A DNA stretch of 64,000 nucleotides, taken from an uncultured Erysipelotrichaceae bacterium. Lineage in GTDB: Bacteria; Bacillota_I; Bacilli_A; RFN20; CAG-826. Under the pieces are notes generated by a model that worked only from the letters and a program-made list of their open reading frames with translations, was not told where the DNA came from and did not search any database. The DNA is taken from the NCBI GenBank assembly GCA_902791935.1, contig CADAXQ010000001.1, positions 41,561 through 105,560 of the forward strand. Direction: 5' to 3'. This document shows, one piece after another, positions 5,043 through 53,731 of this stretch. Numbering within the stretch: the stretch's first letter is position 1; the number at the start of each line of letters is the position of its first letter. Position numbers and translations under genes: made by a program.

Positions 5043-5055
5043 TCATCTACATGTT

Positions 5056-5089
5056 AAAAAGCCTGGTGGAAATGCTCCATCAGGCTTTT
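5056..5089. terminator. bidirectional rho-independent terminator between convergent genes
   Basis: GCCTGGTGGA (5061-5070) pairs with TCCATCAGGC (5076-5085), a 10-bp stem with one G-T pair. It is flanked by an A-run upstream and a T-run downstream. Confidence 0.7.
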
Positions 5090-5101
5090 CATTAACCCGG
5101 T

Positions 5102-5737: not shown

Positions 5738-6120
5738 AATAGCTCCTTCAGAACGATTATTCTTCTTTAGCAATTTTTCAGCGCTCGAAGACGGTTTGTA
5801 TTTCAAAAATGTCTTCGCTCGTCTAAAACAGATGGAGCATTTAATACATACTCATCATACATCAAAAAACAAACTTAAAGAAAATTCAAACATATCGAAC
5901 ATAATCCAGGTATTTCGTTTAAAAATAGTTAAGCATAACCAAATCTCTATCCAGCGCTCTATCTATAAATAAAGCGCTTTGGACAAAGAAGCAAACGATG
6001 ATTTGTCTCTTTCCTAGTAGACATACCTCGGCAGTTTTAACGGCACTATCCTTTCTCTTTTTGTGGATACTGCGACTATTTTGCGTTACAATCGCTACGT
6101 ATTAATAAGGAGTATTAACA

Positions 6121-6678
6121 ATGAACGTTACTGAATTACGTCCCGGAAACTACTTTGAGGACGAAAACACCCTTTACCAAGTCATCGACATCTTATTGAA
6201 CAAGACGGCCATGCGGAAGATGGTCGCAAAGGTGAAGGTCAAGAATGTTCGTACTGGCGCCATCACTGAAATTGCTCGTAACTCTGGTTATGATGTGGAA
6301 CTCGTGAGCATCACCAAGAAGAACATGCAATATCTCTATGACAGCGGCACGACCTTGGTTTTCATGGATCCAAAAACCTATGAACAAGTCGAACTTCCAA
6401 AAGCGAACCTCGAACACGAAATTCCTTATCTCGCCCCAAACGGCGAAATCGTCATGGTTTCGTATGAAGACGAAATCCTCGGTATCGAACTTCCTGCCAA
6501 AGTTGCCTTGGAAGTCGTTGAAACCGAAGCTGGCGTCCGTGGCGACACCATCAGCAATGGTGGCAGCAAAGACGCGAAACTCGAAACTGGTTTAGTCATT
6601 CGTGTTCCTCTCTTCATCAACGTTGGTGAAAAAGTCCTCGTTGACACGACGACTGGCAAATACGACAAGAGAGCATAA
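6121..6678 (+). CDS. efp: translation elongation factor P
   Basis: Full-length colinear similarity to EF-P, including the C-terminal GDTxxGGxKxAxLETGxxxxVPLFI block. AAGGAG SD lies upstream. Confidence 0.95.
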   Translation: MNVTELRPGNYFEDENTLYQVIDILLNKTAMRKMVAKVKVKNVRTGAITEIARNSGYDVELVSITKKNMQYLYDSGTTLVFMDPKTYEQVELPKANLEHEIPYLAPNGEIVMVSYEDEILGIELPAKVALEVVETEAGVRGDTISNGGSKDAKLETGLVIRVPLFINVGEKVLVDTTTGKYDKRA

Positions 6679-6681
6679 GCC

Positions 6682-6903
6682 ATGTCCCTCGAAGTTTGGC
6701 AGTTTGTTCTCTACATTATCCTTGCTTTAATCGTTGGCTTAGTTGGTGGATTCTTTGGCGCTCGGGCCTTAATTAAGTACCAGTTGAAGAAGAACCCTCC
6801 AATCAACGAGAAAATGATTCGCGCGATGTTTGCCCAAATGGGTCGGAAGCCATCAGAAGCTCAAGTCCGCGCCGTCATGAACTCGATGACGAAGAACCAA
6901 TAA
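6682..6903 (+). CDS. UPF0154/YneF-family small membrane protein
   Basis: 73 aa with one N-terminal TM helix, then the conserved block NPPINEKMIRAMFAQMGRKPSEAQV typical of YneF/UPF0154. Confidence 0.85.
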   Translation: MSLEVWQFVLYIILALIVGLVGGFFGARALIKYQLKKNPPINEKMIRAMFAQMGRKPSEAQVRAVMNSMTKNQ

Positions 6904-6922
6904 GTCGTATCGAAAGGCAAAT

Positions 6923-6949
6923 CAGCCCTGACATAAATCAGGGCTTTTT
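6923..6949 (+). terminator. rho-independent terminator after efp-yneF
   Basis: AGCCCTGA (6923-6930) pairs with TCAGGGCT (6937-6944), followed by a T-run. Confidence 0.8.
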
Positions 6950-7242
6950 TCGTGCCCTAGAATCAAGGATAGATTGACTTGTTTTGAACCGACTGATTTT
7001 CATAGTATGCAAGAGGCGAAAGTTATAGAAGGGTAGAAGAAGTTGCGCCCTTCATTTGTGTCTATCCCTTAGTGCCTCGTGACGATGCGTTTCCGTGAAT
7101 ATCTGAGCAGTAGGCAAGGAGAGGAAGTGGGTATAAAATCGGCAAAAATACCTCGTTCCCTATTTTTTCACACATTTTTCACCTTACCGTATTCAATTCA
7201 AAATTTAGTCAATCATTAACATTTGATGAAATCTAATATTTT

Positions 7243-7274
7243 TAAACAAAAAGTGGAGAATTAACTTTTCTCCA
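7243..7274 (-). terminator. rho-independent terminator after plsY
   Basis: GTGGAGAA (7252-7259) pairs with TTCTCCAC (7267-7274). On the minus strand the stem is followed by TTTTTGTTT. Confidence 0.75.
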
Positions 7275-7313
7275 CCATAAAATATAGATTGCTAGAAAAC
7301 TACTAATTATTTC

Positions 7314-8045
7314 CTATTTCCAATCGACTTGTTTTTCTTGTCCTTTTTTGATTCTTTGGATGTTAGAAGCGTGGCGGATCCAAACCAAAATGCAGATGGC
7401 CATTAAGACTACTGCCCGTTCCCAACCATAGAAGTTACCGCCGTAAGGAAGTGGGCCTGCGCCGAAGTTCCACATGAAGTAAGTGAGTTTATTTTGGCTC
7501 CAAATCGTGACGCCATACATCAACCATTCAAAGAGGACTGTGGTGGCGCTTAACGTTAACGTCGAAATCGACATGACTTTTGTTTTCTTGAATAACGGGA
7601 AGAAGGCCACAATACCGAATGCCGAAGAAAGCCAGCTTGTTCCGAATGCCGCCCCGGAGAAGCAGGCAACCGCTTTGCCACCCTGGAACTTCAGCCAAGG
7701 GGAGAAACAATGGCCAAACGCCGCAAAGAACAACGCCAAATAGTTGTAGAAAATGCCGTCGTCCCATAGCGTGACGGTGTTTCGTAATCCTGAGTAGGAG
7801 AGAATCGCCCAGATGGTCCAATACACGACAGCGGTCTTCAAGGCATCCATCACAATCGTAATCACGCCGATTTTTTTGCCAAATACCCGACCCGTATTCG
7901 TTCCCCCGGAATTGTGGGATCCATATTTTCTCGGATCGTCATGAAAGAAAATGTGACCGATGATGATGCCGTTAGGAATGCTTCCAACCAAATAGCCAAA
8001 CACACAGAATACGACGGCAACCAATATGTTGTACCCAATGCTCAT
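7314..8045 (-). CDS. plsY: glycerol-3-phosphate acyltransferase PlsY
   Basis: Polytopic membrane protein with the PlsY motifs GSIPNG and SHNSGGTNTGR. It sits next to parE as in Bacillus/Staphylococcus. Confidence 0.9.
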   Translation of the reverse strand: MSIGYNILVAVVFCVFGYLVGSIPNGIIIGHIFFHDDPRKYGSHNSGGTNTGRVFGKKIGVITIVMDALKTAVVYWTIWAILSYSGLRNTVTLWDDGIFYNYLALFFAAFGHCFSPWLKFQGGKAVACFSGAAFGTSWLSSAFGIVAFFPLFKKTKVMSISTLTLSATTVLFEWLMYGVTIWSQNKLTYFMWNFGAGPLPYGGNFYGWERAVVLMAICILVWIRHASNIQRIKKGQEKQVDWK

Positions 8046-8194: not shown

Positions 8195-10168
8195 ATGGCT
8201 AACGAAGAGAAAGACGAATTCATCGCTGCCGAGGAAAACTACACTGCCAAAGACATTGAGGTCCTTAGCGAGTTAGAGGGCGTTCGTAAACGTCCTGGCA
8301 TGTATATTGGAAGCACAAACCTCACTGGTTTGCATCATTTGGTATGGGAAATTGTCGATAACGCCGTGGATGAAGCTGTGAATGGCTACGGAAAGAAAAT
8401 TACCGTCACGATGATGCGGGATGGCTCCATTCAAATTGAAGACGAAGGACGTGGCATCCCCGTGGATATCCACCCCCAAGCTCATATTCCTGCCGTTCAA
8501 TTGCTTTATACGACGCTCCATTCTGGTGGCAAATTCAATAGCAAGGTCTATCAAACTTCTGCGGGTTTGCATGGCGTAGGCGCCACCGTAACAAACGCCC
8601 TTTCCGAATTTTTGGAAGTGACCATCTACCGTGAAGGCAAGATCTATCACATTGCCTTTCATAATGGCGGGCAGCTTTTGACCCCGTTAGAAGTTTTGGG
8701 CAATACGAGCAAACATGGCACGACCGTCCATTTCAAACCCGATCCAAAGATTTTCCCAAACACGAAATTCTCTTGGGATACGATTTATAACCGCTTGGAA
8801 GAGAAAAGCTATCTTTTAACCGGCGTTCATTTCATTTTGCGTGACCAAAAAAGTGGCAACAGTCATGAGTTCTATACGGAACATGGCTTACGCGAATACG
8901 TGCAATCGTTAACGCAAAACAAGACACCTTTAGGCGATATCATCGATTACACTGACAATTCCAACCCCATTCGTATCGAGATTGCCATGCAATGGTGCAA
9001 TGGCGACTATAATGAGAATGTGATTTCCTACGCCAACGACGTGAAAACCGCTGATGGCGGTACCCATGAAATCGGTTTTAAGACCGCGTTGACGAAGACA
9101 TTAAACGATTGGGCCCAACAAAACGAGATTATCAAACCGAACCAAACGATTGATGGCACCGATATCCGTGAAGGCTTAACCGCCGTGCTTTCCGTCAAAG
9201 TCCCCGAAAACCTTTTGGAATATGAAGGCCAGACCAAAGGCAAATTAGGAACGCCAGAAGCAACATCCGTCGTTTCAAACTCCTTCCAAAATTTCTTCCT
9301 TTATTATTTAAATGAACACAAAGACTTTGCGATTGACTTAATCAAGAAGTGCCAAGCTTCGAAAGACGCTAGAGAAGCGGCTCGGAAAGCAAAAGAAGCC
9401 GCCCGTGGCGCGAAAAAGAAGACCGTCGACTATGTCATCTCCGATAAACTTGCAAGCGCTCAATCGAAAGATTATGCGAATAACGAGCTCTTCATTGTCG
9501 AAGGCGACTCGGCTGGCGGCTCTGCCAAAACCGGTCGTGATCGGCTGCATCAAGCCATTTTGCCATTACGTGGCAAACCACTCAACACCGATAACGTCAC
9601 GATCGATAAAATCGTCAGCAATGTAGAATTCTCCACGTTGATTCAAACGATTGGCGCTGGTGTTGGCCAGAACTTCGATATCAGCGAAGCCCGTTATGGC
9701 AAGATCATCATCATGACCGATGCCGATACCGATGGCGCTCACATCCAAACGCTGCTTTTAACGTTCTTCTATAACTTCATGAAACCGTTAATCGACGCCG
9801 GCATGATTTATATCGCGCAACCGCCGTTATATCGGGTCTATAAGAAGAGCGATCCTTCCAAACACATCTATTGCTGGGACGATAAGCAATTAGAAGAAGC
9901 CAAAGCCAAGATTGGTGCCGGATACGGCATCAACCGTTATAAAGGTTTGGGTGAAATGAACGCCTCCCAATTAGCCGAAACCACCATGGACAAAAAGAAG
10001 CGGGTCTTGCTCCAAGTCAAAATCGACGATCCTTTGGTGGTGGAGAAACGAATCGGAATCTTAATGAGCAAAGACTCTTCAGCCCGCTGGAATTGGATTC
10101 AAGAAAATGTCACCTTCAATGACGAAGATAAATTCTTAGAAGAGCTTGAAGGGGAGAAAAGGAAATAA
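8195..10168 (+). CDS. parE: type IIA topoisomerase B subunit, called topoisomerase IV ParE by synteny
   Basis: GHKL ATPase motifs (GLHHLVWEIVDNAVDEA), Toprim EGDSAGG, PLRGK. The plsY-parE-parC neighbourhood is as in Firmicutes. Confidence 0.85.
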   Translation: MANEEKDEFIAAEENYTAKDIEVLSELEGVRKRPGMYIGSTNLTGLHHLVWEIVDNAVDEAVNGYGKKITVTMMRDGSIQIEDEGRGIPVDIHPQAHIPAVQLLYTTLHSGGKFNSKVYQTSAGLHGVGATVTNALSEFLEVTIYREGKIYHIAFHNGGQLLTPLEVLGNTSKHGTTVHFKPDPKIFPNTKFSWDTIYNRLEEKSYLLTGVHFILRDQKSGNSHEFYTEHGLREYVQSLTQNKTPLGDIIDYTDNSNPIRIEIAMQWCNGDYNENVISYANDVKTADGGTHEIGFKTALTKTLNDWAQQNEIIKPNQTIDGTDIREGLTAVLSVKVPENLLEYEGQTKGKLGTPEATSVVSNSFQNFFLYYLNEHKDFAIDLIKKCQASKDAREAARKAKEAARGAKKKTVDYVISDKLASAQSKDYANNELFIVEGDSAGGSAKTGRDRLHQAILPLRGKPLNTDNVTIDKIVSNVEFSTLIQTIGAGVGQNFDISEARYGKIIIMTDADTDGAHIQTLLLTFFYNFMKPLIDAGMIYIAQPPLYRVYKKSDPSKHIYCWDDKQLEEAKAKIGAGYGINRYKGLGEMNASQLAETTMDKKKRVLLQVKIDDPLVVEKRIGILMSKDSSARWNWIQENVTFNDEDKFLEELEGEKRK

Positions 10169-18253: not shown

Positions 18254-19138
18254 TTATTTCCGCGAAGCATACAAATCATAGGCACTCATGATGCGGCGCG
18301 TAGAAACTTCAGTGTAAATCTGGGTCGTTGCAATCTTGGCATGCCCTAACATCTCTTGCACGGCCCGTAACGAGGCGCCATTTTCTAATAAATGCGTCGC
18401 AAAGCAATGCCGTAACGTGTGCGGCGAGATAGAGGCTTCGATGCCCGCCGCTGCGGCATAACGCTTCACCTGCACAAAGAAATAATTCCGGGAGATTGGT
18501 TTCCCCTCGCGATTCAAAAACAAGACATTGCTCCGATGACCGGGGTTTCGCGCTCTTGGACCATTTACATATTTTTCTAAATATTCCAAGGCAAAAGATG
18601 AAATCGGGACCGTTCGTTCTTTGTTGCCTTTCCCATAGACTGTGACGAGCCCATCCGTCAAATTTACATTTTTAAATTGTAAAGATAATAATTCCGAAAC
18701 ACGGAGCCCGGTCGCATACATGACTTCGAGCATGGCACGATCGCGAATTCCGTTGTCTTTCGTGAGGTCGGGCATCGCAAAAAGACGATTGATATCTTCC
18801 TCATCGATGACGACCGGCAACCGTTTTGCCGGTTTTGGCTTGTCGTCATAAGATATCGGTCTTCCTTTCCTGATTCCTTCCGCCGAAAGGAAATTGAAAT
18901 AATGACGGAGGAAGCTATAACGGCGGAGAATGGTCGCCGCAGCCATGCCATTATTGTCTTCTTCGCGAAGAAACGTCGGAATCATGTCTTCATCAAGGTC
19001 TTTCGTGTCTTTCACGTCCGGAAACGAACGAAGAAAGATCTTAAAATCTTCGCGATAATCCTCGACGGTTGCCTTACTCGCGACATTTTCGAGGCGTAAA
19101 TTTTGTAAGAAATATTCTAACGATTCATGAATTTCCAT
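18254..19138 (-). CDS. xerD: tyrosine recombinase XerD-type
   Basis: C-terminal catalytic block HTLRHCFATHLLENGASLRAVQEMLGHAKIATTQIYTEV. It is adjacent to deoB as ripX-drm is in B. subtilis. Confidence 0.85.
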   Translation of the reverse strand: MEIHESLEYFLQNLRLENVASKATVEDYREDFKIFLRSFPDVKDTKDLDEDMIPTFLREEDNNGMAAATILRRYSFLRHYFNFLSAEGIRKGRPISYDDKPKPAKRLPVVIDEEDINRLFAMPDLTKDNGIRDRAMLEVMYATGLRVSELLSLQFKNVNLTDGLVTVYGKGNKERTVPISSFALEYLEKYVNGPRARNPGHRSNVLFLNREGKPISRNYFFVQVKRYAAAAGIEASISPHTLRHCFATHLLENGASLRAVQEMLGHAKIATTQIYTEVSTRRIMSAYDLYASRK

Positions 19139-32062: not shown

Positions 32063-33619
32063 TTATATCGCACGTTCCGCCATTAAATCGAGGCTTTCTT
32101 CCCCTTTGAATTCATTCCGTTTCATCGTGAGTAATAACGAAACTTTCTCATCGGGTTCAAACGCGTCTTGCCCTAAAGAGAACGAAAGAATCTTCGTATC
32201 GTTCGTGAGACGCACACAAAGATACTTCCCTTCTTTTAAATAGGTAAACGTCGTTGGATTTAACCCATCAAGCCGGAATTTTGGGGCTTCCCATTCCATT
32301 CCGAACGGGGCGAATGTCCGTAAGATCCGGTAAGAGGTCATATTGCATTCATTTAAAGCAATCGGAATGGCTTCTTTTTTCTTCGGGGCCAATTTATGTT
32401 TTAACGCAGAGAAAATGAAATCTTTTTTAAAAGAATCGAAATCGCTTTCTTTGATGGTGCAACCAGCCGCAAACGCATGCCCGCCTTGATGTAAGAACGA
32501 CGTTTTCGCTTCTTGGAATGCCTTTAAGATGTCAAAGCCTTCTTTGGAACGTAACGAGCCAACGAGATATCCTTTGTTCTTTTCGTCCAAAGAAAAGACC
32601 GCAATCGGTTTGTCATATTGGCTAAGTAGTCGTCCCGCCAATAAGCCATTTAATCCTTCCGGAAGACTGCTTTTTACGACAATCGCGGCATCTTCGGGAT
32701 GAATTTCTAAGGAATCGGCCGCTTGTTTCGTCAGCTCTTTCCGTTTCTCATTCACTTCATTGATCCAAGCTGCCCGTTTTTCTTGATCGGCGGAAAACGG
32801 CGTCGGTTCAGAGAAATAATGAAGCAGTCGATTGATGGTCGTTCCCGTTTCATAACGGCCAATGGAATTGATCTTTGGAATAATCTCTAATTGGAATGTG
32901 CTTTCATCCAGTGTCGTTTGACTGGTTAAAGCCTTAATTGTCGGGTAATCCTTATGATTCACTTCTTCTAGCATCAAACGGACAATCACGCGGTTATAGT
33001 CGCGAAGTGGCATTAAATCGCTTAAGGTAGAGATGGCCCCTAAACACATCAAATAAGGGTCGACCGTTTGCAATAACGCTTTCGAAAACACGAAAGAAAG
33101 ATAGCCTGCAGAAATCGGGACATCACCATAAGCCAAGGCGGTAGGATGAATCAAAACGTCAGCTTCGGGGGCGGTTTCATCCATTTCATGGTGATCTAAA
33201 ACAATCACTTTCATGCCGAGTGCTTTGGCTTTTTGAAGCGCTTCATGAGCCGTCACCCCATTATCACAAGTCATGATGGCGGAGAATCCCTTCTCGTGGA
33301 TTTTCTCGACATTTTTGGCATTTAAGCCATAGCCATCTAAATAACGCGATGGCAAATAACCGGCGACAGATAAGCCAAAATGTCTTAGCGCCGCGACTAA
33401 AATCGAGCAAGACATGACGCCATCGGTATCATAGTCGCCATACACAAGAATCCGTTGTTTCTTGTCGCGAAGTTCTTGTATTAAAGCAATAGCCTTTTTC
33501 GTGTCTTCCTTATCATCAATCCATGGGATAGACGAAAGCGAAGGGGCGAGCGTTAATTGCTCATAATCCCCTTCGCTCAAATCGTAATATTGGCAGAGTC
33601 TTTTGACGAAAGAATCCAT
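32063..33619 (-). CDS. recJ: single-stranded-DNA-specific exonuclease RecJ (short form)
   Basis: DHH motifs (GDYDTDGV, DNGVTA, VLDHH) and DHHA1 GGHAFAAG. The secDF-recJ-rel order is as in Bacillus. Confidence 0.9.
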   Translation of the reverse strand: MDSFVKRLCQYYDLSEGDYEQLTLAPSLSSIPWIDDKEDTKKAIALIQELRDKKQRILVYGDYDTDGVMSCSILVAALRHFGLSVAGYLPSRYLDGYGLNAKNVEKIHEKGFSAIMTCDNGVTAHEALQKAKALGMKVIVLDHHEMDETAPEADVLIHPTALAYGDVPISAGYLSFVFSKALLQTVDPYLMCLGAISTLSDLMPLRDYNRVIVRLMLEEVNHKDYPTIKALTSQTTLDESTFQLEIIPKINSIGRYETGTTINRLLHYFSEPTPFSADQEKRAAWINEVNEKRKELTKQAADSLEIHPEDAAIVVKSSLPEGLNGLLAGRLLSQYDKPIAVFSLDEKNKGYLVGSLRSKEGFDILKAFQEAKTSFLHQGGHAFAAGCTIKESDFDSFKKDFIFSALKHKLAPKKKEAIPIALNECNMTSYRILRTFAPFGMEWEAPKFRLDGLNPTTFTYLKEGKYLCVRLTNDTKILSFSLGQDAFEPDEKVSLLLTMKRNEFKGEESLDLMAERAI

Positions 33620-36336
33620 CAGTCATTAATTCCGATAAAGATGGCTTCTTCCGGTTCGCTGCTCTTTTTCTTTTGCTGGCTCTTCTTCGAACGCGGACGA
33701 TTCGCCCAAGAAGTCCGGACCGAGCGAGCGGCGACGTCTAAGCCGAGGCTTAATTGCACCGAGTAAGATGGCAACAATGTCAAAACGAGGGCAAGTGCTA
33801 CCAAAATACCGATGGCAGCGCCTAAGAAGATCATGCGGTCCACTTGTGGCGCAATGGCGAGGAAAGGCAAGCAAATTCCGATGGCAGCTAACGTAGCCAC
33901 AATGGTATCCCCGGCACTTTGCGATCCAGCCGCCAGTAACATACTGTTCCGGAATGACAAAGCTTTCTTGTCTTTTTCGCGGCTATCTTTGATGAGTTCA
34001 CGTTCTTTGTTCAGCGGATAGAGTGCCAAATAGAAGCCCATCGCAACCGCAGCAATGATGCCAATGCCAGCAATCGGTGTCACGGCAAGACGCGTCAAAG
34101 CAAAGAATCCACCGACAATAACGCCACTCCCCATCGCGATAATCGAGGCAGGAAGTGAACGAGAGAGACGGAAACGTAACGCATAGTAAGCCATCAAGGC
34201 AATCGAGGCGATACCGACGGCTAAATAGACAGAACCCATGGTTGGGCTACCCGCTTCATAGGTCACACGGTTGGCGTTCACTGTAATTGCATCGGCATCC
34301 GCGTTCGTGTCAACCACTTCTTGAAGGGCTGTCGTGAGATAGGTTTCGCTACTTGTGCCATCGATGACAAATGGATAAACCGTTTCCGCATCGAAGTATT
34401 GCGTTAATGGGATTTGGAAGTGATAAACCGTGTATTGCACGACTTGCAGGCCATCGTTAATGGAAACCGTGGTGTTTTCTAACGAGATTTGGCCGTCAAT
34501 ATATTGCGTTAAATCCTTATCCTTATAGGTAATGTGGGACAAGAGATTGTCACGGACTTGATCTTGTGTTGAAAGCGTACGGGTACTTTGCGAATCCGTT
34601 TGCACACGATACTCTACGGCAATTGACGTCGTATTTTCGTAAGCACCGGCGTAATTGAATATGCCACCTTTCGAAGGAGCGAAAATCGACATGCCGATGA
34701 TGGATGCAAGGCAAAGCGCCCCGCCTGCAATTGCCCAAACTTTCTTGTGTTTGCCAAAGTCTTTGTCGGCATAAGGTCCAAAATACGTTTGTTTTTGTTC
34801 GGCCATTAAGTTCGGGACACGGCTTTCATCAAGGAAGTAAACCGAGCCAGGATGTTTTTCACAATCATTGTCGTTGGCTAACATCCAGCCTTCGAGCTTA
34901 CCAAGCGTGAGATTTAAGACGGTTCCGAAGAACACCGTCAAGATTAAAGAAAGGCCAAGTTTACCGACAGCGCCTGGGATTAAGCCATAAACGCAAAGAC
35001 CAACAATCAAGGAAACGATATTGGCGTCTAACATCGGCCAAACCGATTTCTTATAGGCTTCGGATTCGGCTTTCTTAAGCGTACGTCCCTTATACATTTC
35101 TTCTTTGAGCTTGGCGTAATAGTAGGCACCGCCAAACATCGTCACGCCGACCCCTAACATGAAGCCAACGATGGCACCGATACCAAACTGGGCGCCGAAA
35201 TAAGCAAAGAGAAGAATGCCAAATTCTAAGGCAAGGACGCCATTCGAAACGATGGAGAGCGCTCCCCAGTGATAGAAGAGAGCCAGCACAAGCGCCACAA
35301 CGCCGAGCGCAACGACGCAAGCAATCATCGTGGGTCCCCAATGGACCGATAAATGCCAGTCACTTGCTTTCGTTAAGGCGTCCACGGTTGCTGGAACTGT
35401 GACCGAGTAATCAAAAGTAATGTCGTAATTATATTCTTTGGCGTTTAGCACTGAGCAATAGTAAAGGGCAGCTTTATACGCAGCCCCAGCTTTGGAAGAA
35501 TCGAAATTCCCATTTTTGATGGCGTCAGAGTTCGGCACCAATTGGAATTTCTTGTAGTTGTTATTCTCGTTGCTGGAATCCACATACCAAGCATTCGCGG
35601 CACTTTCGCCGAAAATCAAACGTTTGGCCATGTTGGGATCATAGTCATCAGAAGACGTATTGGTCGCCGCAAGATAGTTGTCGCCTTCTTGCATATGGTT
35701 CCAAAGAACGATGTAGGAGTAAGACGCTTCGGTCGAGGCCGAGGAGTCGGCTTCGTGGGAATTATCCGAGGCGTATTTAATGAGTTCGTTTAATTCGCCT
35801 GTTTCGCCTTGGGCATTGACTTCAATCGTAACGACCGGGACGTTGTTGATATATTCAATTTGTGCTTCGTGGCCATCAAACATGGCGTTATCGCGGTAAG
35901 AAGCATGGGATGGGGCGCCTTTTTGAATGTCTTGGGTCGGGGCGCCGACGCCAATTGTGATATCTTGGCCAGAGAACGAAAGATAATCTTCAAGATAACG
36001 ATATTCCGTATCGTCTTGCGAGGCAGTACGCACCACGACTTTGATGGTGTCGTAGCCTTCTTTGTTCACTTCCGCTTCAATGTTCCAGTTCTCTAAGCGG
36101 TCTTTCATTTCTTCGGCGACTTCGTCCACCGCGCCATAACCATCGGTTTGTTGAATGTAGTTTTCAGTCAAAACACCATTGTAGGTCGTGTCTTTTTTCG
36201 AAATCTTAAAATACAACGCGCGACTGTCGCCATAGCTCACGTCGGTGTCCATCATCGTGACGGCTTTCCCCATGGTGGCCAAAGAGCCAAGCATTAACAG
36301 GGCGCTCGTCAGAATGTATCCCCATTTCCGTAACAT
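33619..36336 (-). CDS. secDF: fused protein-export membrane protein SecDF
   Basis: Large extracytoplasmic domain followed by two 6-TM SecD/SecF blocks. ATG at 36336 with GGAGGAACGAT upstream (MLRKWGYILTS...) is preferred over the ORF-track start at 36465, which would overlap the ruvB terminator. Confidence 0.88.
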   Translation of the reverse strand: MLRKWGYILTSALLMLGSLATMGKAVTMMDTDVSYGDSRALYFKISKKDTTYNGVLTENYIQQTDGYGAVDEVAEEMKDRLENWNIEAEVNKEGYDTIKVVVRTASQDDTEYRYLEDYLSFSGQDITIGVGAPTQDIQKGAPSHASYRDNAMFDGHEAQIEYINNVPVVTIEVNAQGETGELNELIKYASDNSHEADSSASTEASYSYIVLWNHMQEGDNYLAATNTSSDDYDPNMAKRLIFGESAANAWYVDSSNENNNYKKFQLVPNSDAIKNGNFDSSKAGAAYKAALYYCSVLNAKEYNYDITFDYSVTVPATVDALTKASDWHLSVHWGPTMIACVVALGVVALVLALFYHWGALSIVSNGVLALEFGILLFAYFGAQFGIGAIVGFMLGVGVTMFGGAYYYAKLKEEMYKGRTLKKAESEAYKKSVWPMLDANIVSLIVGLCVYGLIPGAVGKLGLSLILTVFFGTVLNLTLGKLEGWMLANDNDCEKHPGSVYFLDESRVPNLMAEQKQTYFGPYADKDFGKHKKVWAIAGGALCLASIIGMSIFAPSKGGIFNYAGAYENTTSIAVEYRVQTDSQSTRTLSTQDQVRDNLLSHITYKDKDLTQYIDGQISLENTTVSINDGLQVVQYTVYHFQIPLTQYFDAETVYPFVIDGTSSETYLTTALQEVVDTNADADAITVNANRVTYEAGSPTMGSVYLAVGIASIALMAYYALRFRLSRSLPASIIAMGSGVIVGGFFALTRLAVTPIAGIGIIAAVAMGFYLALYPLNKERELIKDSREKDKKALSFRNSMLLAAGSQSAGDTIVATLAAIGICLPFLAIAPQVDRMIFLGAAIGILVALALVLTLLPSYSVQLSLGLDVAARSVRTSWANRPRSKKSQQKKKSSEPEEAIFIGIND

Positions 36337-36427
36337 ATCGTTCCTCCGTGCCTCACCGAAAAAATCGGCTAGCAATGCGGTTATTATTTTACGCGCGCAC
36401 CCGTAGGGTGACAAGGGGAAAGACGAG

Positions 36428-36456
36428 AAAAGAAAAAGCCCCGTGAACGCGAGGCT
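36428..36456 (-). terminator. rho-independent terminator after ruvB
   Basis: Minus-strand AGCCTCG...CGGGGCT stem (one G-U pair) followed by TTTTTCTTTT. Confidence 0.65.
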
Positions 36457-36461
36457 CTGTA

Positions 36462-37472
36462 TCAAATTAAATATCCTTGATGAGGCAATCCCAAATGTTC
36501 TCTGGCTTTATTGGTGACTTCCCGACCTCTCGGCGTACGGTTAATCATCCCAATCATCACGAGATAAGGTTCGTAAACATCTTCTAAATTTGTGATTTCT
36601 TCGCCAATTGCAGAGGCAATAGACTCGATACCGACCGGTCCGCCATGGAAACGTTCAATGATGGTCCGAAGATATTTAATGTCCACATCATCCAAGCCAA
36701 GATCGTCGATTTTTAGGGCTTTCATCGTCTGGAGAGCGACTTCGCTATCAATATGATCTTTGCCTTCATAAGAAGCAAAATCACGGACGCGGCGGAAAAT
36801 GCGGTTCGCAATCCGTGGCGTGCCCCGACTTCTGGAAGACAAAATTGAGACGGCATCGGGATCAATCGGCATCTTGAGTACCTTTGAAGTCCGGGTGATA
36901 ATCAGACCGATTTCATCTTGCGAATAGAAATCGATTTTGGCAGAGATGCCAAAACGAGCCCGTAAGGGCGCGCTTAAATCGCCCGCTCTTGTCGTTGCAC
37001 CGACTAAGGTGAAAGGAGGTAAGGCCATATGTAATGGCTTCGCCGCCCCATCGCGGTTAATCATGATGGTTAACTCATAGTCTTCCATCGCGCCATAGAG
37101 CACTTCTTCCACGGGACGAGGCAACCGATGGATTTCATCGATAAAAAGAACGTCCCCTGGTTCTAATTCACAAAGTATCGCGGCTAAATCGCCCGTTTTC
37201 TCAATGGAGGGGCCATTGACGACTTTGATATTGCCACCCATTTCATTGGCGATCACGTAAGCCAATGTGGTCTTGCCTAAGCCAGGCGGGCCGTAAAGCA
37301 AAACATGGTCTAACGGCTCTTCCCGCTTTTTCGCGGCGCCGATAAAGACTTTAAGATTCCGCTTTAATTCGGATTGTCCGACATATTCTTTCAGATTTTT
37401 CGGACGTAACGTCAAATCCGTCGAAAGATCTTCGGCTTCCGCATTGCCATCTACGATACGATTCTTGCTCAT
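36462..37472 (-). CDS. ruvB: Holliday junction helicase RuvB
   Basis: Walker A GPPGLGKTT, DEIHRL, 336 aa. It overlaps ruvA. Confidence 0.97.
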   Translation of the reverse strand: MSKNRIVDGNAEAEDLSTDLTLRPKNLKEYVGQSELKRNLKVFIGAAKKREEPLDHVLLYGPPGLGKTTLAYVIANEMGGNIKVVNGPSIEKTGDLAAILCELEPGDVLFIDEIHRLPRPVEEVLYGAMEDYELTIMINRDGAAKPLHMALPPFTLVGATTRAGDLSAPLRARFGISAKIDFYSQDEIGLIITRTSKVLKMPIDPDAVSILSSRSRGTPRIANRIFRRVRDFASYEGKDHIDSEVALQTMKALKIDDLGLDDVDIKYLRTIIERFHGGPVGIESIASAIGEEITNLEDVYEPYLVMIGMINRTPRGREVTNKAREHLGLPHQGYLI

Positions 37473-48359: not shown

Positions 48360-48920
48360 TTATGACAGTTTTAGCATCCCTGCGACTTTTTTTCGTAACA
48401 AAGCAGGATTGTCGTCTTTGGAAAAGAGAATGCGTTCATCCCCATAGGGGCGTTGTAACGCCTTTTGCTTTTCGCTTTGATTGGCTTTGTCGGCCTTTGA
48501 AAAGACCACTAAAGTCGGTATCGATTCTTTTTCTAAATAAGAAAATAACAAAAGATCATCCTCATTTGGTTCTAAACGGCAATCGAGCAAGAACACGCAT
48601 CCACGAAGCAGCGGATTCTCGAAATAACGTTCCATCATGGCGCCAAAAGCGTCGTCTTCTTTTGACCCATAATGCGTATAACCATATCCAGGCGAATCCA
48701 CCAAATAAAAGGCATCATCGATCAAAAAATAATTCAAATAACGGGTTTTGCCGGCGCGTTTCGAAGAATAGGCCAGCTTTTGCCCCGTTAGAGTATTAAT
48801 CAAGGAAGATTTCCCAACATTGGAACGACCGACAAAAACCAATTCTGGAAGTTTGTCTTTCGGCCGATAGTCCAACGACGGGGCAGAAATGATATAACGC
48901 GCTTTTCGAAAATCGATCAT
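48360..48920 (-). CDS. engB: ribosome-biogenesis GTPase EngB/YsxC
   Basis: G1 GRSNVGKSSLIN, G3 DSPGYG, G4 SKADK, 186 aa. It lies downstream of lon as in Bacillus. Confidence 0.93.
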   Translation of the reverse strand: MIDFRKARYIISAPSLDYRPKDKLPELVFVGRSNVGKSSLINTLTGQKLAYSSKRAGKTRYLNYFLIDDAFYLVDSPGYGYTHYGSKEDDAFGAMMERYFENPLLRGCVFLLDCRLEPNEDDLLLFSYLEKESIPTLVVFSKADKANQSEKQKALQRPYGDERILFSKDDNPALLRKKVAGMLKLS

Positions 48921-49048
48921 GCTTAGATTATAGCAAAAAGGAGTACGTTTTTTTAAAAGGTCACAAGCTTTGAAGTGATGAATGGTTTCATTCTCACCTC
49001 GCTGAAATCGCTAAATCATCGCCGTTTAAATTTGACTTGTTCGGTTTG

Positions 49049-49259
49049 TCAATAGACCCCATGCCTATGGACCTTGTATTTTTTCCCGTTAAGCTCGATG
49101 TACTCCAATGGGTGTATCCTCAAAGTGCCAAGGATAATAATCATAGGAATCAAGATGCACCAACACATAGTATTTCTCGTGCTTAGCCATAATAAAGCAA
49201 GTATCGGGCTGTCCCATTTGGTCCCATCCTTCCCTTTTATCGTAGCAAAATGTAGACAT
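49049..49259 (-). pseudogene. decayed paralog of the 100-aa partner gene (internal deletion plus frameshift)
   Basis: The ATG at 49259 gives MSTFCYDKREGWDQMGQPDTCFIMAKHEKYYVLVHLDSYDYYPWHFEDTPIGVHRA*. Compare MFTFCYDKKE...MARHEKYYVLAYLDPYDYVP in the intact copy. The C-terminal homology IELNGKKYKVHRHGVY* (compare IIELREKRYQIHRYSGE*) continues in another frame down to 49049. Confidence 0.75.
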
Positions 49260-49263
49260 AAGA

Positions 49264-49362
49264 TTACGAGTTACGGGGATAAGTTGTATATCCGCTATCG
49301 TTTTTGATATGCAAGAGTGCGAAGAGAGAGTTGGCGCGCTTGTTTAAATTGAGTTTTTTCAT
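49264..49362 (-). pseudogene. orphan 3' remnant of a paralog of the 457-aa gene (last ~26 codons only)
   Basis: Translation gives MKKLNLNKRANSLFALLHIKNDSGYTTYPRNS*. The intact gene ends ...PPYKRAHSLFGLLRIKGDGGYTTYPQKP*. DNA identity is obvious by eye, and the 4-nt stop-to-start spacing to the next ORF is the same. Confidence 0.75.
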
Positions 49363-49365
49363 TTG

Positions 49366-49668
49366 CTATTCGCCACTATATCGATGAATTTGATATCTTT
49401 TTTCGCGAAGTTCGATGATCGCGTAATTTGTCAGAATTTCAATTACTTTGGGATTCAATTCTGCACATAGTATGGCATCTTCTTCTTTGCTCTCTGGCTC
49501 CATGTCTTCAATAAGCGTATTTTTAAAATACAGCGGAACGTAATCATAAGGATCAAGATAGGCCAGAACATAGTATTTTTCGTGCCTGGCCATAACAAAG
49601 CAAAGACAAGACATATGCCAGAAGACATCTTCTTCCATTTCTTTTTTGTCGTAACAAAATGTAAACAT
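49366..49668 (-). CDS. 100-aa cytoplasmic partner protein of unknown family (candidate immunity/antidote)
   Basis: The ATG at 49668 lies 4 nt after the TAA of the upstream gene. There is no signal peptide or TM segment, and the C-terminal half is acidic. The start was chosen because the decayed paralog begins at the equivalent MxTFCYDK. Alternative starts are at 49707 (ATG) and 49731 (TTG). Confidence 0.75.
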   Translation of the reverse strand: MFTFCYDKKEMEEDVFWHMSCLCFVMARHEKYYVLAYLDPYDYVPLYFKNTLIEDMEPESKEEDAILCAELNPKVIEILTNYAIIELREKRYQIHRYSGE

Positions 49669-49672
49669 AACA

Positions 49673-51046
49673 TTACGGTTTTTGGGGATAGGTTGTATAG
49701 CCGCCATCGCCTTTGATTCGCAAGAGCCCAAAGAGCGAATGGGCCCGTTTATATGGCGGAGCTTCTATCCTCACGACCTTGTCGTCTTTCTTTTCTCCTA
49801 GATGGTAATGGTTCCACCCGAATAAATCGCCTTGGTCTACGGTCTTGTCATAGACAAGCAAGCTGTAATTACCATTGATTCGGTTAGAACCTAAGGCCAT
49901 CATCCTTTTAGCTTTGTTATTGTACCACGTGTAAGTGCAAACCCCGAAATCGTAAAGCTTGTTGTTGACAACAAAATCCTCGTCTACTTCCGCATAGCAA
50001 ATCCACCAGTGTTTTCCTTTTTCTTTAGCAGGATTCCCCATATGACCCATCAGCCATATTTTTTCGTTACGTCTGCTTTCGTCAGTAATGCTTTTCGCCA
50101 TATCCAGCGTGATGATTGTGTCGATGAATTCTAGTGTTCGCCCGCCAGCATTAACTCTTTTAGCGACTTTGGACTCCTCTCCTTTGGCCGCAGCATCGCC
50201 AAAGTAGGTATCAATGAGGGAAGAGAACAAGGTGAACTGTTCCTTAAACCAAGTTTTTATTTCTTCCATCTTTTGACTAATCGCAGCCCAATTCTCAACA
50301 ATGATGACAGTCAAAGCAACAAGAGCGCCCACAATCAACATCACGGCTAATGCCCATCCGATGAACGGAATCCAAGAAGCAGAGAGACCAACGGTCATGG
50401 TGGATATGCATGAAGTGAAGGCGGTAATGATCGTTTCACCAAGCCCTGCTCCAGAGAGGATTGCGACAATTCCAGCTGTGGCAGCCGCGGCAACTCTGGT
50501 AATGGTTGTTCCGCCTGAATCGATCGTCGGATGCAAGGGCATTATCGGATCAATGGGGTTCGTCGGTATAGTCGCATGGTTGTACTTCAAATCGATGTTA
50601 AGATCCTGATAGAAGCTGTGATTCAAAGTCACATAGCGGTCAAAATTATAGTCTTGACTTCTCAATGTTTCATATTTTTGAAGTTGCTCTGAGGTCAAGG
50701 ATGCTTCAAGATCGGTTTGATAATCATACATGACTTGGCTGAAATCTGGAGCTACATAGTTGATATCAAATTCAGGAAGTTCGATGGCTTCCTTGTCATC
50801 CACGTTCAAACCGGCAATGTTCAAATAATCAGGAAACTCATTTTGATAACTGTTTATGGCACGTTCAAACACAACCTCAGGATCTTCCGTGGTATCAAGA
50901 ACGTCGTTCATTGCTTTTTTGATGTTGCGAACCAGCTGCGTCTTTGTCTCATTTGCCTTTGCAACCGCATAGTTGCTATTTTTGCAAGCGGTCACAAAAG
51001 CGAATAAAACAGCCATTAAAGTAGCAAAAAACTTTTTAGACTTCAT
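49673..51046 (-). CDS. 457-aa lipobox-bearing multi-TM protein with an uncharacterised ~200-aa C-terminal domain (candidate toxin/effector)
   Basis: MKSKKFFATLMAVLFAFVTAC is a signal peptide plus lipobox. A domain of about 165 aa follows. Next is a hydrophobic block VAAAATAGIVAILSGAGLG-E-TIITAFTSCISTMTVGLSASWIPFIGWALAVMLIVGALVALTVIIV (2-3 TM helices). Last is a soluble C-terminal domain (…HWWICYAEVDED…GWNHYHLGEKKDD…KRAHSLFG…GYTTYP) with no family I can name. Confidence 0.8.
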   Translation of the reverse strand: MKSKKFFATLMAVLFAFVTACKNSNYAVAKANETKTQLVRNIKKAMNDVLDTTEDPEVVFERAINSYQNEFPDYLNIAGLNVDDKEAIELPEFDINYVAPDFSQVMYDYQTDLEASLTSEQLQKYETLRSQDYNFDRYVTLNHSFYQDLNIDLKYNHATIPTNPIDPIMPLHPTIDSGGTTITRVAAAATAGIVAILSGAGLGETIITAFTSCISTMTVGLSASWIPFIGWALAVMLIVGALVALTVIIVENWAAISQKMEEIKTWFKEQFTLFSSLIDTYFGDAAAKGEESKVAKRVNAGGRTLEFIDTIITLDMAKSITDESRRNEKIWLMGHMGNPAKEKGKHWWICYAEVDEDFVVNNKLYDFGVCTYTWYNNKAKRMMALGSNRINGNYSLLVYDKTVDQGDLFGWNHYHLGEKKDDKVVRIEAPPYKRAHSLFGLLRIKGDGGYTTYPQKP

Positions 51047-51267
51047 ACCATATCTCTCTTTTTTAATTTTAATTTATCATTTTTACTAAAATGCGTCAAT
51101 ATCACGAATACTGACAGCATACCGCCAAGCAAGAACGCATGCATAGGAAGCGAATTTTCGTAATTAGTGAGCAAAATTGACCTATGTCTGAATAAAAAGC
51201 CATATGTTCAAATCCAAAAAGCAAATCAAGACAACGAAAATTCATTCCATCATTGGCTATTTTCCAT

Positions 51268-51303
51268 ATAAAAAACCTCTGCTGTTTTGGGAACAACAGA
51301 GGT
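51268..51303 (-). terminator. strong rho-independent terminator after lon
   Basis: Minus-strand CCTCTGTTG...CAGCAGAGG (9-bp stem) followed by TTTTTTAT. Confidence 0.85.
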
Positions 51304-51340
51304 CATGAATTAGGATGAAGTAACCAAGTGGCAGGAATGT

Positions 51341-53731
51341 TTAAGCATTCGTCGCCGCTGGCTTGTTTTCGCTTGGTGTGACTGGCGTAGGTGCAGGGAC
51401 GTTATCCGGTCCAAAGAGATAAGGAAGCGCATCATCGACCTTCTTCATATAGACGATCTTTAAGCCCTTCTTCACTTCTTCGGGGAGTTCATCGACATCT
51501 TTGCGGTTTTCTTCCGGCACAATGATGGTCTTAATACCACTCCGTAAGGCCGCGAGGGATTTCTCCCGTAAGCCGCCAATCGGAATGACGTTGCCGCGTA
51601 ACGTGACTTCGCCAGTCAAGGCGACATTGTTATCCACGGGTTTGCCAGTCAAGGTCGAAAGAATGGCGCAAGTAATCGCAACACCGGCACTCGGGCCGTC
51701 TTTTGGCACGGCACCTTCTGGGAAATGCAAGTGAATCTCGTTCTTTTCGAACATCTCCGGTTGGATGCCATAACGGTCAGCGTTCGCCCTCACATAGTCC
51801 AGAGCAATCAAGCAGCTTTCCTTCATGACGTCCTTTAAGTTACCGGTCGTCACTAAGCCGCCTTTGCCTTGGAAATGCGTTGCTTCAATTGGCAAGATAT
51901 CGCCACCGAATTCCGTATAAGCAAGACCTGTCACCACCCCAACCTGCGGTTCTTTTTCTTTCTTGGTGTCTTCGAAGATTTCAACGCCAAGATACTTCCG
52001 AACTTGGGCGGCATCCACAACAATTGGTTTTGGATGCTCAGGGTTACGGATGAGTTCCACCACGGCTTTTCGGCAACAAGATGCGATCAAACGCTCTAAT
52101 TCACGAACGCCGGCTTCGCGGGTATAGAACTCAATGATTTCTTTTAACCCATCTTCAGGGAAAGTGATATCCCCTGCTTTTAAGCCGTTCGCGTTCATTT
52201 GCTTCTGCACCAAGAATCCTTCGGCAATCTTAAGTTTTTCAATCTCGGTATAAGACGGGACTTCAATCAGTTCAAGACGGTCGCGGAGCGGCGCAGGAAC
52301 GTTCTCAAGATAGTTCGCGGTCGCGATGAATAGAACATTCGACAAATCATAAGGTTCTTCGAGGTAGTTGTCGTTAAACGAGGAGTTTTGTTCCGGGTCT
52401 AAGACTTCAAGCAAGGCGCTCGAAGGATCGCCTTTGTAATTCGATCCGCCGACTTTATCGATTTCATCGAGCAAGAATACCGGATTCGTCACGCCAGCCT
52501 TCGTCATGCCTTGGATGATGCGGCCTGGTAAGGCGCCGACATAGGTTCTCCGATGGCCACGGATTTCCGCTTCGTCGGAAACACCGCCTAATGAGCACTT
52601 ATAGAACTTCCGTCCTAAGGCGCGAGCGATGGATTTCGCTAACGAAGTTTTGCCACATCCCGGGGGTCCGTAGAAGCAAAGAATCGGGGCTTTGAGATTA
52701 CCCGTCGATTTCTTGACGGCAAGGTACTCAATAATCCGTTTCTTGACTTTGTCGAGACCGTAATGGTCTTCGTCCAAAATCTTTTGCACGTTGGCCAAAT
52801 CATCGTTGTCTTCGGTCTTTTGATACCATGGAACACCCAGTAACGTCTGGATGTAGTTCATGATGAGCGAGGATTCCAAAGACGCTTCGGGCATCATCTC
52901 ATAACGATGTAATTCCGATTTGACTTTGGCTTTGATGTTTTCGGGATAAGGGTTCTTCTCGATCTTTTGCCGAATGGCATCCACATCGTCTGCCGAATCC
53001 TTTCCTTCACCGAGTTCATCTTTAATCGCGCGCATCTTCTCCCGCAAGAAGTATTCCTTTTGGGATTGTTCGGCACGTTCCCGAACCGTTTCGTCGAGTT
53101 TTTCATCGATTTGGTTCAGTTGTTCTTGTTGTTTGACGGCTGCCAAAATGGCTTTCAAGCGTTCATTGACGTTCCCTTCGGATAAGAGCTTGATTTTTTG
53201 CTCCACCGAGAAAGGGAGATAGCCCGAAAGCGTATCGGCGATATCGGCTGGCGATCCGCCTCTTCCTAAAGAGTTAATGGCGCTCTTAGGGATATTTTGT
53301 CCGATGGACGGACTGTTCCCAATGGTAGTGACGATGTCGCGGATCAAGGTCACAATCTCGTTTTCGTCACCGGTCGTATCTTCAATTAACGTGCCATCAG
53401 CTAAATACGTGCCATTGTCTAAACGAATGTTACTTAACGCAACCCGTTTCGAGCCAATGACGCGAATTCGGATGGTATCGCCTTTTTCTTGATAATCGAC
53501 AATGCGGCAAAGCGCTGCGGTTGTATAGACATCTTCGGGAACTTTGATGTCATCTACTTTTTCATCTTTCTGAACGCCGACGAACAATAAAGAGTTCATC
53601 TGGTCGTGTGCGCGGCGTGCCGCCTCTTTGCTATAGGCCCGACCTGCTTCGATGGATTCGGTCATGTTTGGGAACACAACCAAGCCCTTCGTAATCAGGA
53701 AGGGAAGAGTTAAAGGTTCTTTGCTGTCCAT
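51341..53731 (-). CDS. lon: ATP-dependent protease Lon
   Basis: LON N-terminal domain, Walker A GPPGCGKTS, protease motif KDGPSAGVA, 796 aa. Confidence 0.97.
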   Translation of the reverse strand: MDSKEPLTLPFLITKGLVVFPNMTESIEAGRAYSKEAARRAHDQMNSLLFVGVQKDEKVDDIKVPEDVYTTAALCRIVDYQEKGDTIRIRVIGSKRVALSNIRLDNGTYLADGTLIEDTTGDENEIVTLIRDIVTTIGNSPSIGQNIPKSAINSLGRGGSPADIADTLSGYLPFSVEQKIKLLSEGNVNERLKAILAAVKQQEQLNQIDEKLDETVRERAEQSQKEYFLREKMRAIKDELGEGKDSADDVDAIRQKIEKNPYPENIKAKVKSELHRYEMMPEASLESSLIMNYIQTLLGVPWYQKTEDNDDLANVQKILDEDHYGLDKVKKRIIEYLAVKKSTGNLKAPILCFYGPPGCGKTSLAKSIARALGRKFYKCSLGGVSDEAEIRGHRRTYVGALPGRIIQGMTKAGVTNPVFLLDEIDKVGGSNYKGDPSSALLEVLDPEQNSSFNDNYLEEPYDLSNVLFIATANYLENVPAPLRDRLELIEVPSYTEIEKLKIAEGFLVQKQMNANGLKAGDITFPEDGLKEIIEFYTREAGVRELERLIASCCRKAVVELIRNPEHPKPIVVDAAQVRKYLGVEIFEDTKKEKEPQVGVVTGLAYTEFGGDILPIEATHFQGKGGLVTTGNLKDVMKESCLIALDYVRANADRYGIQPEMFEKNEIHLHFPEGAVPKDGPSAGVAITCAILSTLTGKPVDNNVALTGEVTLRGNVIPIGGLREKSLAALRSGIKTIIVPEENRKDVDELPEEVKKGLKIVYMKKVDDALPYLFGPDNVPAPTPVTPSENKPAATNA

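Follow-up and report, generated by a model that had tools for sequence, protein, structure and literature searches.

The window analysed here is a 64,000-nucleotide (64-kb) stretch of contig CADAXQ010000001.1 from an uncultured Erysipelotrichaceae bacterium, and our subject is a two-gene cassette on its minus strand, between lon (51341-53731) and the GTPase gene engB/ysxC (48360-48920), together with a degraded partial copy of that cassette. The intact pair, which we call resident, consists of a gene for a putative polymorphic toxin of 457 amino acids (aa) and a downstream gene for a 100-aa putative cognate immunity protein, here called the partner; the partial copy, or orphan, lies directly behind it. 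Along the minus strand, the resident partner stop is followed by 24 unrelated nucleotides (nt), a 25-codon toxin tail, a 4-nt spacer and a second copy of the partner gene. The features of the two copies are as follows.

49673..51046, minus strand: resident full-length gene, putative polymorphic toxin, 457 aa (from the list of open reading frames)
Toxin residues ~186-250: hydrophobic helical segment (hydropathy)
50159..50197, minus strand: conserved junction (DAxAxGEES...), toxin residues 284-296, presumed left recombination point (alignments A1/A2)
49676..50158, minus strand: variable C-terminal domain, putative effector, toxin residues 297-457
49366..49668, minus strand: resident partner, 100 aa, putative cognate immunity protein, starting MFTFCYDKKE...
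49264..49341, minus strand: orphan toxin tail, 25 codons resembling toxin residues 433-457, plus stop codon (tblastn)
49260..49263, minus strand: orphan spacer TCTT, 4 nt, equal in length to the resident spacer TGTT (read from the sequence)
49049..49259, minus strand: orphan partner pseudogene (tblastn and same-species contigs)
Within 49091-49100, minus strand: junction of an 87-nt deletion in the orphan partner

The resident toxin begins with MKSKK, a hydrophobic stretch and a lipobox (VTAC), an arrangement that by sequence and hydropathy resembles a lipoprotein signal, and its C-terminal end reads ...KRAHSLFGLLRIKGDGGYTTYPQKP*, with TAA as the stop codon. Hydropathy analysis found one strong hydrophobic helix (residues 227-250) and two weaker ones, and the flanking charge gave no decision. 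At the junction, D284 and S292 are invariant in alignments A1/A2. Four nucleotides (TGTT) separate the toxin stop from the ATG of the partner, which is acidic (isoelectric point (pI) 4.75) and has no signal peptide. Partners of the window type have just 9 representatives among 1.84 billion proteins, and a word-indexed search with the partner as query returned only the partner itself.

A sequence-only reading of this stretch had proposed that the DNA downstream of the intact pair repeats the toxin tail and the partner gene, and the sequences it quoted were all found on the minus strand. A local nucleotide alignment of orphan positions 49093-49341 with resident positions 49497-49750 has 183 identical columns of 246 (74%), and its score of 140 compares with 19.4 +/- 2.3 in 500 dinucleotide-preserving shuffles (z = 52). 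At the protein level, by tblastn against the 64-kb window, the orphan tail matches the toxin at 17 of 23 residues (E = 1e-5), residues 1-53 of the partner are 53% identical (E = 8e-15, or 2e-13 with SEG filtering and composition correction), and residues 85-97 match in a different frame with E = 0.34 alone, collinear with the rest. The similarity withstands masking of low complexity and is not a product of it. The same search found no further copies of the tail/partner unit in the window.

The proposal can be refined at the upstream edge of the tail. In the open reading frame (ORF) at 49264-49362, which ends ...KRANSLFALLHIKNDSGYTTYPRNS*, toxin homology covers 49264-49341 and begins only at codon 433, whereas the upstream codons MKKLNLN (49342-49362) have no homology to the resident copy. 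The 24 nt between the resident partner stop and 49341 likewise have no counterpart there. The 4-nt spacers are equal in length, as had been stated. The second partner copy opens with a 56-aa ORF (49089-49259) that starts MSTFCYDKRE..., with its N-terminal part at 49107-49259, and its C-terminal part (49052-49105, ...IELNGKKYKVHRHGVY*, stop codon 49049-49051) lies in another frame, again as the sequence-only reading had it. The plus-strand ORF that it mentioned at 49074-49307 exists and is antisense to the remnant.

Contigs from four further samples carry the 457-aa protein with 99% identity, and three of these contigs (L018, L019 and L020) reach through the orphan. A single additional G at 49105/49106, where the orphan partner reads ATTGGAG and the resident copy ATTGAAG, puts the orphan partner out of frame, and this +1 frameshift is common to the window and all three contigs. 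What had been described as the lost middle part of the partner is an 87-nt deletion seen in the window only; L018, L019 and L020 keep these 87 nt, flanked by near-identical 10-nt direct repeats, CATCGA[A/G]CTT (CATCGAACTT ... CATCGAGCTT). A run of A in the C-terminal part (49081-49086) has 6 A in the window and L020 and 7 A in L018 and L019, where it makes a second frame change. The four strains differ by at most ~1%, and the indels in a ~970-nt comparison (the 87-nt deletion and A6/A7) all lie inside the orphan. Both partner fragments are listed in public collections as separate 56-aa and 68-aa proteins (P0073 and P0074).

Without the extra G, the L020 version of the orphan partner encodes a 98-aa protein whose full-length alignment with the resident partner shows 60% identity, compared with 54-56% to the partners of other species. 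Between the resident and the repaired orphan partner, the proportion of synonymous differences (pS) is 0.71 (range 0.71-0.78), that of nonsynonymous differences (pN) is 0.22 and dN/dS is ~0.12, and in neutral simulations at this divergence only 2% of sequences remain free of stop codons. The low dN/dS and the rarity of stop-free neutral simulations indicate that the orphan partner was for most of its history a working gene under protein-level selection, and that it died recently. At the family-invariant positions H436 and G440 the tail has N and A instead, and the conserved C-terminal half of the partner, KPKVIxILTNYATIEL, is deleted or out of frame. Because only 25 toxin codons are kept and the partner is frameshifted, the orphan cannot serve as a donor for toxin swaps; it is a fossil of past turnover, neither a usable recombination donor nor a working immunity gene.

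Searches with the 457-aa protein found 67 homologues, mostly full length (430-480 aa) and all unnamed or 'hypothetical'. The 17 related genome records are mostly labelled uncultured Bacilli, 'Mollicutes' or Candidatus Onthovivens, with a few bins of other taxa; the L001, L007 and L014 cassettes come from bins labelled Hallerella, Bacteroides uniformis and Lachnospiraceae, and these are probably mis-binned contigs and not true hosts. Across the family the N-terminus is hydrophobic, and the VTAC Cys of the window protein is not conserved. Further along are a well-conserved domain (residues ~40-165, alignments A1/A2) and a conserved amphipathic stretch that ends in DAxAxGEES (~284-296). The variable C-terminal domain still has the common motifs STYTWYNN, GWNHYH, AHSFFG and YPxNP, as well as eight invariant residues: Y372, T373, A379, H413, H415, H436, F439 and G440 (A2, A4).

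Among 57 full-length homologues, mean pairwise identity is 55% in the N-terminal region versus 34% in the C-terminal region, and the correlation between the two is 0.20. There are 91 pairs with at least 80% identity N-terminally but less than 40% C-terminally (for example, 95% vs 25%), and 35 pairs are discordant in the opposite direction. This discordance indicates that backbones have swapped their C-terminal domains. Each of the 17 genome loci has a small downstream gene that overlaps the toxin end or starts close behind it, and at these loci the partners fall into families A-F, which follow the C-terminal types. Types A and B of the C-terminal domain are ~50% identical, and their partners are remote homologues (hhalign 94.6%). 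All partners are acidic (pI 4.2-6.6) and have neither a signal sequence nor a hydrophobic N-terminus.

In 4 of the 17 loci frameshifts or stops break the full-length toxin gene into 2-4 ORFs, and the partner is intact (L011:336-1637, L015:6001-7301, L016:2827-4223 and L017:5995-7434); both copies from the Candidatus Onthovivens metagenome-assembled genome (MAG) are among them, and the splits could reflect pseudogenisation or MAG assembly errors. On a same-species ENA contig the resident toxin is frameshifted at ~codon 358, in the C-terminal domain, giving 375-aa and 76-aa products (P0103 + P0101), and P0107, from another sample, has lost 7 aa (QNEFPDY) of the N-terminal domain through an in-frame deletion; these variants, too, could be true toxin inactivation or assembly errors. 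At L004, positions 2074-2376 are a 100% identical copy of the first 101 toxin codons, ~4 kb upstream of the full gene (6001-7338), and a phage-terminase-like ORF (8806-9246) lies downstream of the full gene, an arrangement that suggests recent rearrangement or insertion.

Orphan modules are also present at other loci of the family. At L006 (7699-8128), behind a type-A toxin and its partner come the final 19 codons of a type-C toxin (with stops), and the orphan continues with a type-C spacer, a ribosome-binding site and an intact type-C partner. At L002 (7912-8462), the resident pair is followed by an 8-codon tail of another type ('..THPDSLKN*') and a further partner gene. In both cases the orphan differs in type from the resident pair, which duplication cannot yield, so displacement operates in this family. 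L025 (2192-2876), from a sister species, is a common, 95%-identical variant of the L022 locus (3497-5705) with a 1654-bp deletion that removes toxin codons 1 to ~383 along with the 3' part of a methyltransferase gene; the toxin gene is reduced to its final ~73 codons and the immunity gene is intact, a 'toxin lost, immunity kept' genotype whose fragment protein (P0090, 116 aa) has 260 member sequences. In L023 and L024, whose genomic contexts are unrelated, a partner accompanies a frameshifted C-terminal fragment that is truncated at its 5' end and begins at residue 240 or 293, respectively. Several partner paralogues are present in L005 and L012, with extra copies up- and downstream of the toxin (L005:3614-4251 and 6390-7462; L012:4810-5873) that are 78-91% identical to the resident one and make up either multi-copy immunity arrays or tandem cassettes.

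Across the family, immunity genes survive longer than their toxins, and older modules are displaced downstream together with a 3' stub of the toxin gene. This agrees with the sequential-displacement model for Vibrio type VI secretion clusters and Rhs loci (PMC5361080) and with how polymorphic toxins are generally defined (PMC3482391). The sequence-only reading had seen in the window orphan the mark of a polymorphic toxin-immunity locus under turnover, and C-terminal exchange, co-varying partners, the orphans at L006/L002 and the toxin-lost variant L025 bear this out. It had also named the orphan as the main evidence for a cassette of this type; evidence it is, but the family-wide modularity is stronger.

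In Pfam, NCBIfam and PADLOC, nothing significant was found for the toxin, the partner or either orphan ORF. Ten partner proteins from other loci gave nothing above threshold in Pfam (SH3/Tudor/chromo hints had E of at least 0.05), 31 C-terminal domains gave no consistent Pfam match, and the best match of a C-terminal profile to PDB sequences (E 0.41) was noise. AlphaFold2 (AF2) produced a full-length model with pLDDT 84 and pTM 0.82 and a model of the C-terminal domain with pLDDT 91 and pTM 0.87. Foldseek comparison with PDB returned only helical noise for the former (e.g. nuclear-receptor ligand-binding domains; E of at least 0.24), and for the latter nothing with E below 0.37 or with a template modelling (TM) score above 0.21. 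The best Foldseek match in BFVD (E = 0.009) was rejected at TM 0.27-0.36 and a root-mean-square deviation of 12 Å.

Set against the polymorphic-toxin criteria defined by Zhang et al. 2012 (PMC3482391), the family has a conserved N-terminus with a replaced C-terminal domain, a co-varying immunity gene immediately downstream in 17/17 genome loci and orphan cassettes near a full-length gene (window, L006, L002, L023, L024 and L025); a recognised toxin domain or other delivery scaffolds were not found. Assignment to several known classes was rejected. For contact-dependent inhibition (CDI; CdiB/CdiA/CdiI), the 457-aa protein has no Pfam domain and no VENN motif; for Rhs/YD-repeat toxins, it has no RHS repeat match in Pfam and is just 457 aa long; and for type VII secretion system (T7SS) LXG toxins, it has no LXG match in Pfam and its N-terminus is signal-peptide-like. 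Type II toxin-antitoxin systems were set aside in view of its length, signal-like N-terminus and hydrophobic helices and the lack of a toxin-antitoxin match in Pfam or PADLOC. Tox-REHH DNase toxins, which are divergent HNH enzymes, have conserved active-site Arg, Glu, His and His (bioRxiv 10.64898/2026.09.22.753552); a link to them is unsupported, as neither Arg nor Glu is among the residues that are invariant here (S, L, Y, T, A, H, H, H, F and G), in a comparison by described residues only.

Among known systems, the nearest analogues are Neisseria MafB/MafI and the immunity arrays of Vibrio type VI secretion system (T6SS) loci. In the T6SS auxiliary clusters of Vibrio cholerae, orphan immunity arrays arise by sequential effector displacement, in which the 3' end of the displaced effector and its immunity gene are left by homology-facilitated illegitimate recombination (Kirchberger et al. 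2017, PMC5361080). The likeness is that a new module leaves the old effector 3' end and immunity gene downstream, as seen in the window, L006 and L002. The window, however, has no T6SS context, its carrier is a putative Sec-type signal-peptide protein with hydrophobic helices, the effector and immunity families are unrelated to those of V. cholerae, and its array has one dead member versus up to six intact genes. MafB proteins resemble the window family in having a signal peptide (putative in the window family), a lineage-restricted N-terminal domain, a junction and a polymorphic C-terminus, followed by a downstream immunity gene with spare C-terminal/immunity cassettes nearby (Zhang et al. 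2012, PMC3482391; Jamet and Nassif 2015, PMC4436062). They differ in that the window protein has no Pfam match to the MafB N-terminal domain and has lon upstream in place of a MafA-like lipoprotein gene. MafB also carries unrelated toxin domains, whereas the C-terminal domains of the window family are variants of one fold and are preceded by a hydrophobic helical segment.

Recombination can reactivate classic orphans of the CDI and Rhs kind, which retain the conserved pre-toxin motif (CdiA VENN, Rhs PxxxxDPxGL); it cannot do so for an orphan of 25 codons, as in the window. The window protein also has no two-partner secretion (TPS), filamentous-haemagglutinin or RHS-repeat domains in Pfam. The cdiA-CT/cdiI and Rhs-CT loci are nevertheless similar in their strings of displaced or silent modules downstream of the expressed gene (Poole et al. 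2011, PMC3150448; Koskiniemi et al. 2014, PMC3967940), and L023 and L024 likewise keep a C-terminal fragment from the junction onward plus the immunity gene. Displacement of Rhs C-termini was reported by Jackson et al. 2009, as cited in PMC5361080. The T7SS LXG and EsaD/EsaG loci (Garrett et al. 2022, PMC9484751) belong to the same phylum, Firmicutes, and have toxins followed by strings of non-identical immunity paralogues, with recombination between tandem copies that recalls the 87-nt repeat-mediated deletion in the window and the L005/L012 arrays; in contrast to them, the window protein has no LXG/WXG domain in Pfam, and its putative N-terminal signal peptide points to Sec export. A possible analogy is offered by the SitA lipoprotein toxins of myxobacteria (Vassallo et al. 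2017, PMC5562445): polymorphic, anchored in the membrane by a lipobox and countered by immunity proteins in the cytoplasm, they are passed on by outer-membrane exchange and use no dedicated injection machine. Here, however, the lipobox is not family-wide, the hosts are not diderm myxobacteria and nothing points to membrane exchange. In function the locus behaves like a polymorphic toxin-immunity system. It lies outside the CDI, Rhs, LXG/T7SS and MafB families, because their defining domains are absent from it in Pfam.

The G+C content of the cassette (0.37-0.45) is somewhat below that of the flanking housekeeping genes (0.46-0.52; window 48800-51400), and in sister species the cassette is found in other genomic contexts (L022); both observations fit an insertion into a conserved housekeeping gene cluster. 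Two promoter-like sites were located in the region by consensus pattern match only.

51071..51099, minus strand: promoter-like site upstream of the toxin, TTGACG-17-TAAATT with TG
48927-48956: engB promoter-like site, just downstream of the orphan

A consensus scan found no terminator-like site between the partner, the orphan and engB, which makes read-through plausible, so that transcription from the toxin promoter-like site may plausibly extend into the orphan. Elsewhere in the window, two large ORFs have no Pfam match at E <= 1e-5 (2979-5042, plus strand, 687 aa, and 33619-36465, minus strand, 948 aa), and a gene for a XerC/D-type tyrosine recombinase, with Phage_integrase and SAM-like N-terminal domains, lies at 18254-19138 on the minus strand. 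A weak tblastn match to the toxin N-terminal region inside the latter (18656-18829) was dismissed as chance at an hhalign probability of 0.4%.

On balance, we consider it fairly likely that 49049-49341 is the dead remnant of an earlier toxin C-terminus plus immunity module in a polymorphic toxin-immunity locus. What the analysis shows is the homology, the lesions, the modular exchange across the family, partner families that match C-terminal types and orphans that recur; on this reading we infer toxicity, neutralisation, a route of export and delivery and a recombination mechanism along the following lines. The 457-aa protein would be exported by Sec via its N-terminal signal/lipoprotein sequence and would bear a variable effector domain with three invariant histidines, and the small acidic cytoplasmic partner would neutralise this C-terminal domain in the producer cell. 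New C-terminal-domain/immunity modules would enter by recombination, with a homologous crossover on the left, in the conserved N-terminal part or the junction (~284-296), and on the right an illegitimate join close to the old toxin gene's 3' end, which would move the old immunity gene, along with the final 10-25 codons of its toxin, downstream. The displaced immunity gene might be useful for a while against neighbours that make the old toxin, and would then decay; in the window this decay has taken place, the +1 frameshift (all four strains) coming before the 87-nt repeat-mediated deletion (window strain only), and the tail is without its invariant His and Gly. Because there are three invariant histidines and the partners are acidic and cytoplasmic, the C-terminal domain is probably a toxin, namely a histidine- or metal-dependent hydrolase acting on a cytoplasmic target.

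A number of observations weigh against this interpretation. All C-terminal types share one scaffold and the same motifs, so that the polymorphism amounts to variation inside one domain family and not to the swapping of unrelated toxins. In profile searches the C-terminal domain was seen on one N-terminal architecture and on fragments only, and no fusion to LXG, Rhs or other known delivery modules was found, unlike many classic polymorphic toxin domains. The putative toxin domain matches no recognised toxin family or fold. With 1 to 3 hydrophobic helices the topology is ambiguous, and the C-terminal domain may be either extracellular or cytoplasmic. In the window, orphan and resident pair belong to one type and each is the nearest relative of the other, so that an old local duplication may have occurred there. 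Finally, an expressed orphan-type allele, that is, a full-length toxin ending ...KRAHSLFGLLHIKNDSGYTTYPRNS with an intact MSTFCYDKREGW... partner, was found neither among 1.84 billion representative proteins, which yielded only the fragments P0073 and P0074, nor in JGI metagenome contigs.

The duplication just mentioned deserves to be weighed in its own right. If the tail and partner had been duplicated locally in tandem, the locus would long have kept a two-gene immunity array of which one member decayed, without any displacement. Consistent with this, both copies have the same C-terminal/immunity type and the same spacer length, the orphan partner is nearest to the resident one (60% vs 54-56% to those of other species), and arrays of immunity paralogues occur in L005 and L012 and in Firmicutes T7SS loci (PMC9484751). 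The advantage in identity is, however, a mere 4-6 points, and saturation at synonymous sites (pS 0.71-0.78) would make the event very old, with a useless 25-codon tail surviving throughout. This saturation, the survival of the tail and the orphans at L006 and L002, which differ in type from their resident pairs, favour displacement, and we regard duplication as unlikely, if still a serious alternative. Quite unlikely, in our view, is an intracellular two-gene system (toxin-antitoxin-like or anti-phage), in which a membrane-anchored protein has an extracellular sensor domain and a cytoplasmic effector domain checked by the partner, and the orphan is a decayed antitoxin. One or three membrane helices would indeed put the C-terminal domain in the cytoplasm beside the signal-less partner, the domain is never on known secretion-system carriers, and defence systems diversify fast too; but there is no PADLOC match, the toxin gene precedes the partner gene, and C-terminal exchange on a 95%-identical N-terminus, displaced units of another type and toxin-lost variants are hallmarks of polymorphic toxins (PMC3482391, PMC5361080) and not of toxin-antitoxin or defence operons.

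We give little credence to a residual function of the remnant, whether as a small protein (the 56-aa partner half or the 32-aa tail ORF) or as an engB 5' untranslated or regulatory region. All four strains have the 56-aa ORF of the N-terminal part unbroken, no terminator-like site stands between the remnant and the upstream operon, and the engB promoter-like site (48927-48956) lies just downstream; yet strains that differ by at most ~1% make such ORF conservation uninformative, and the confinement of indels to the orphan fits relaxed constraint. The tail, moreover, is without the invariant H436 and G440, and the KPKVIxILTNYATIEL half of the partner is deleted or out of frame. That the similarity is due to chance or low complexity, with no real repeat, is next to impossible in the face of z = 52, 74% identity over 246 columns, E values of 1e-5 and 2e-13 with SEG and composition correction, the collinear order of tail, spacer and partner in both copies and sister contigs that restore the 87 nt in register.

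Returning to the displaced module as the preferred reading, there is nothing unusual in the orphan as a trace of toxin-module turnover. It is of value in drawing attention to a two-gene cassette, everywhere annotated as 'hypothetical protein', as a likely inter-bacterial toxin-immunity system in poorly known uncultured gut bacteria. The family offers a confidently modelled effector domain without a structural relative in PDB, and several new candidate immunity families. It also provides a natural series of states (intact pair, displaced intact immunity gene, toxin-deleted locus with immunity and fully dead orphan) that could be used for studying the turnover of competition systems in the gut, and, in the window, a dated example of pseudogene decay, where a frameshift common to four strains was followed by a strain-specific deletion between short direct repeats. 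More tentatively, and less likely than not in our view, this may be an undescribed polymorphic toxin family confined to uncultured reduced-genome gut Bacilli/'Mollicutes', exported by Sec and not by T5SS, T6SS or T7SS, membrane-embedded via its hydrophobic helical segment, with a three-His fold absent from PDB and, as neutralisers, at least six unrelated or distantly related families of small acidic proteins. If so, these bacteria would deliver a membrane-anchored toxin to their neighbours by a route not yet described.

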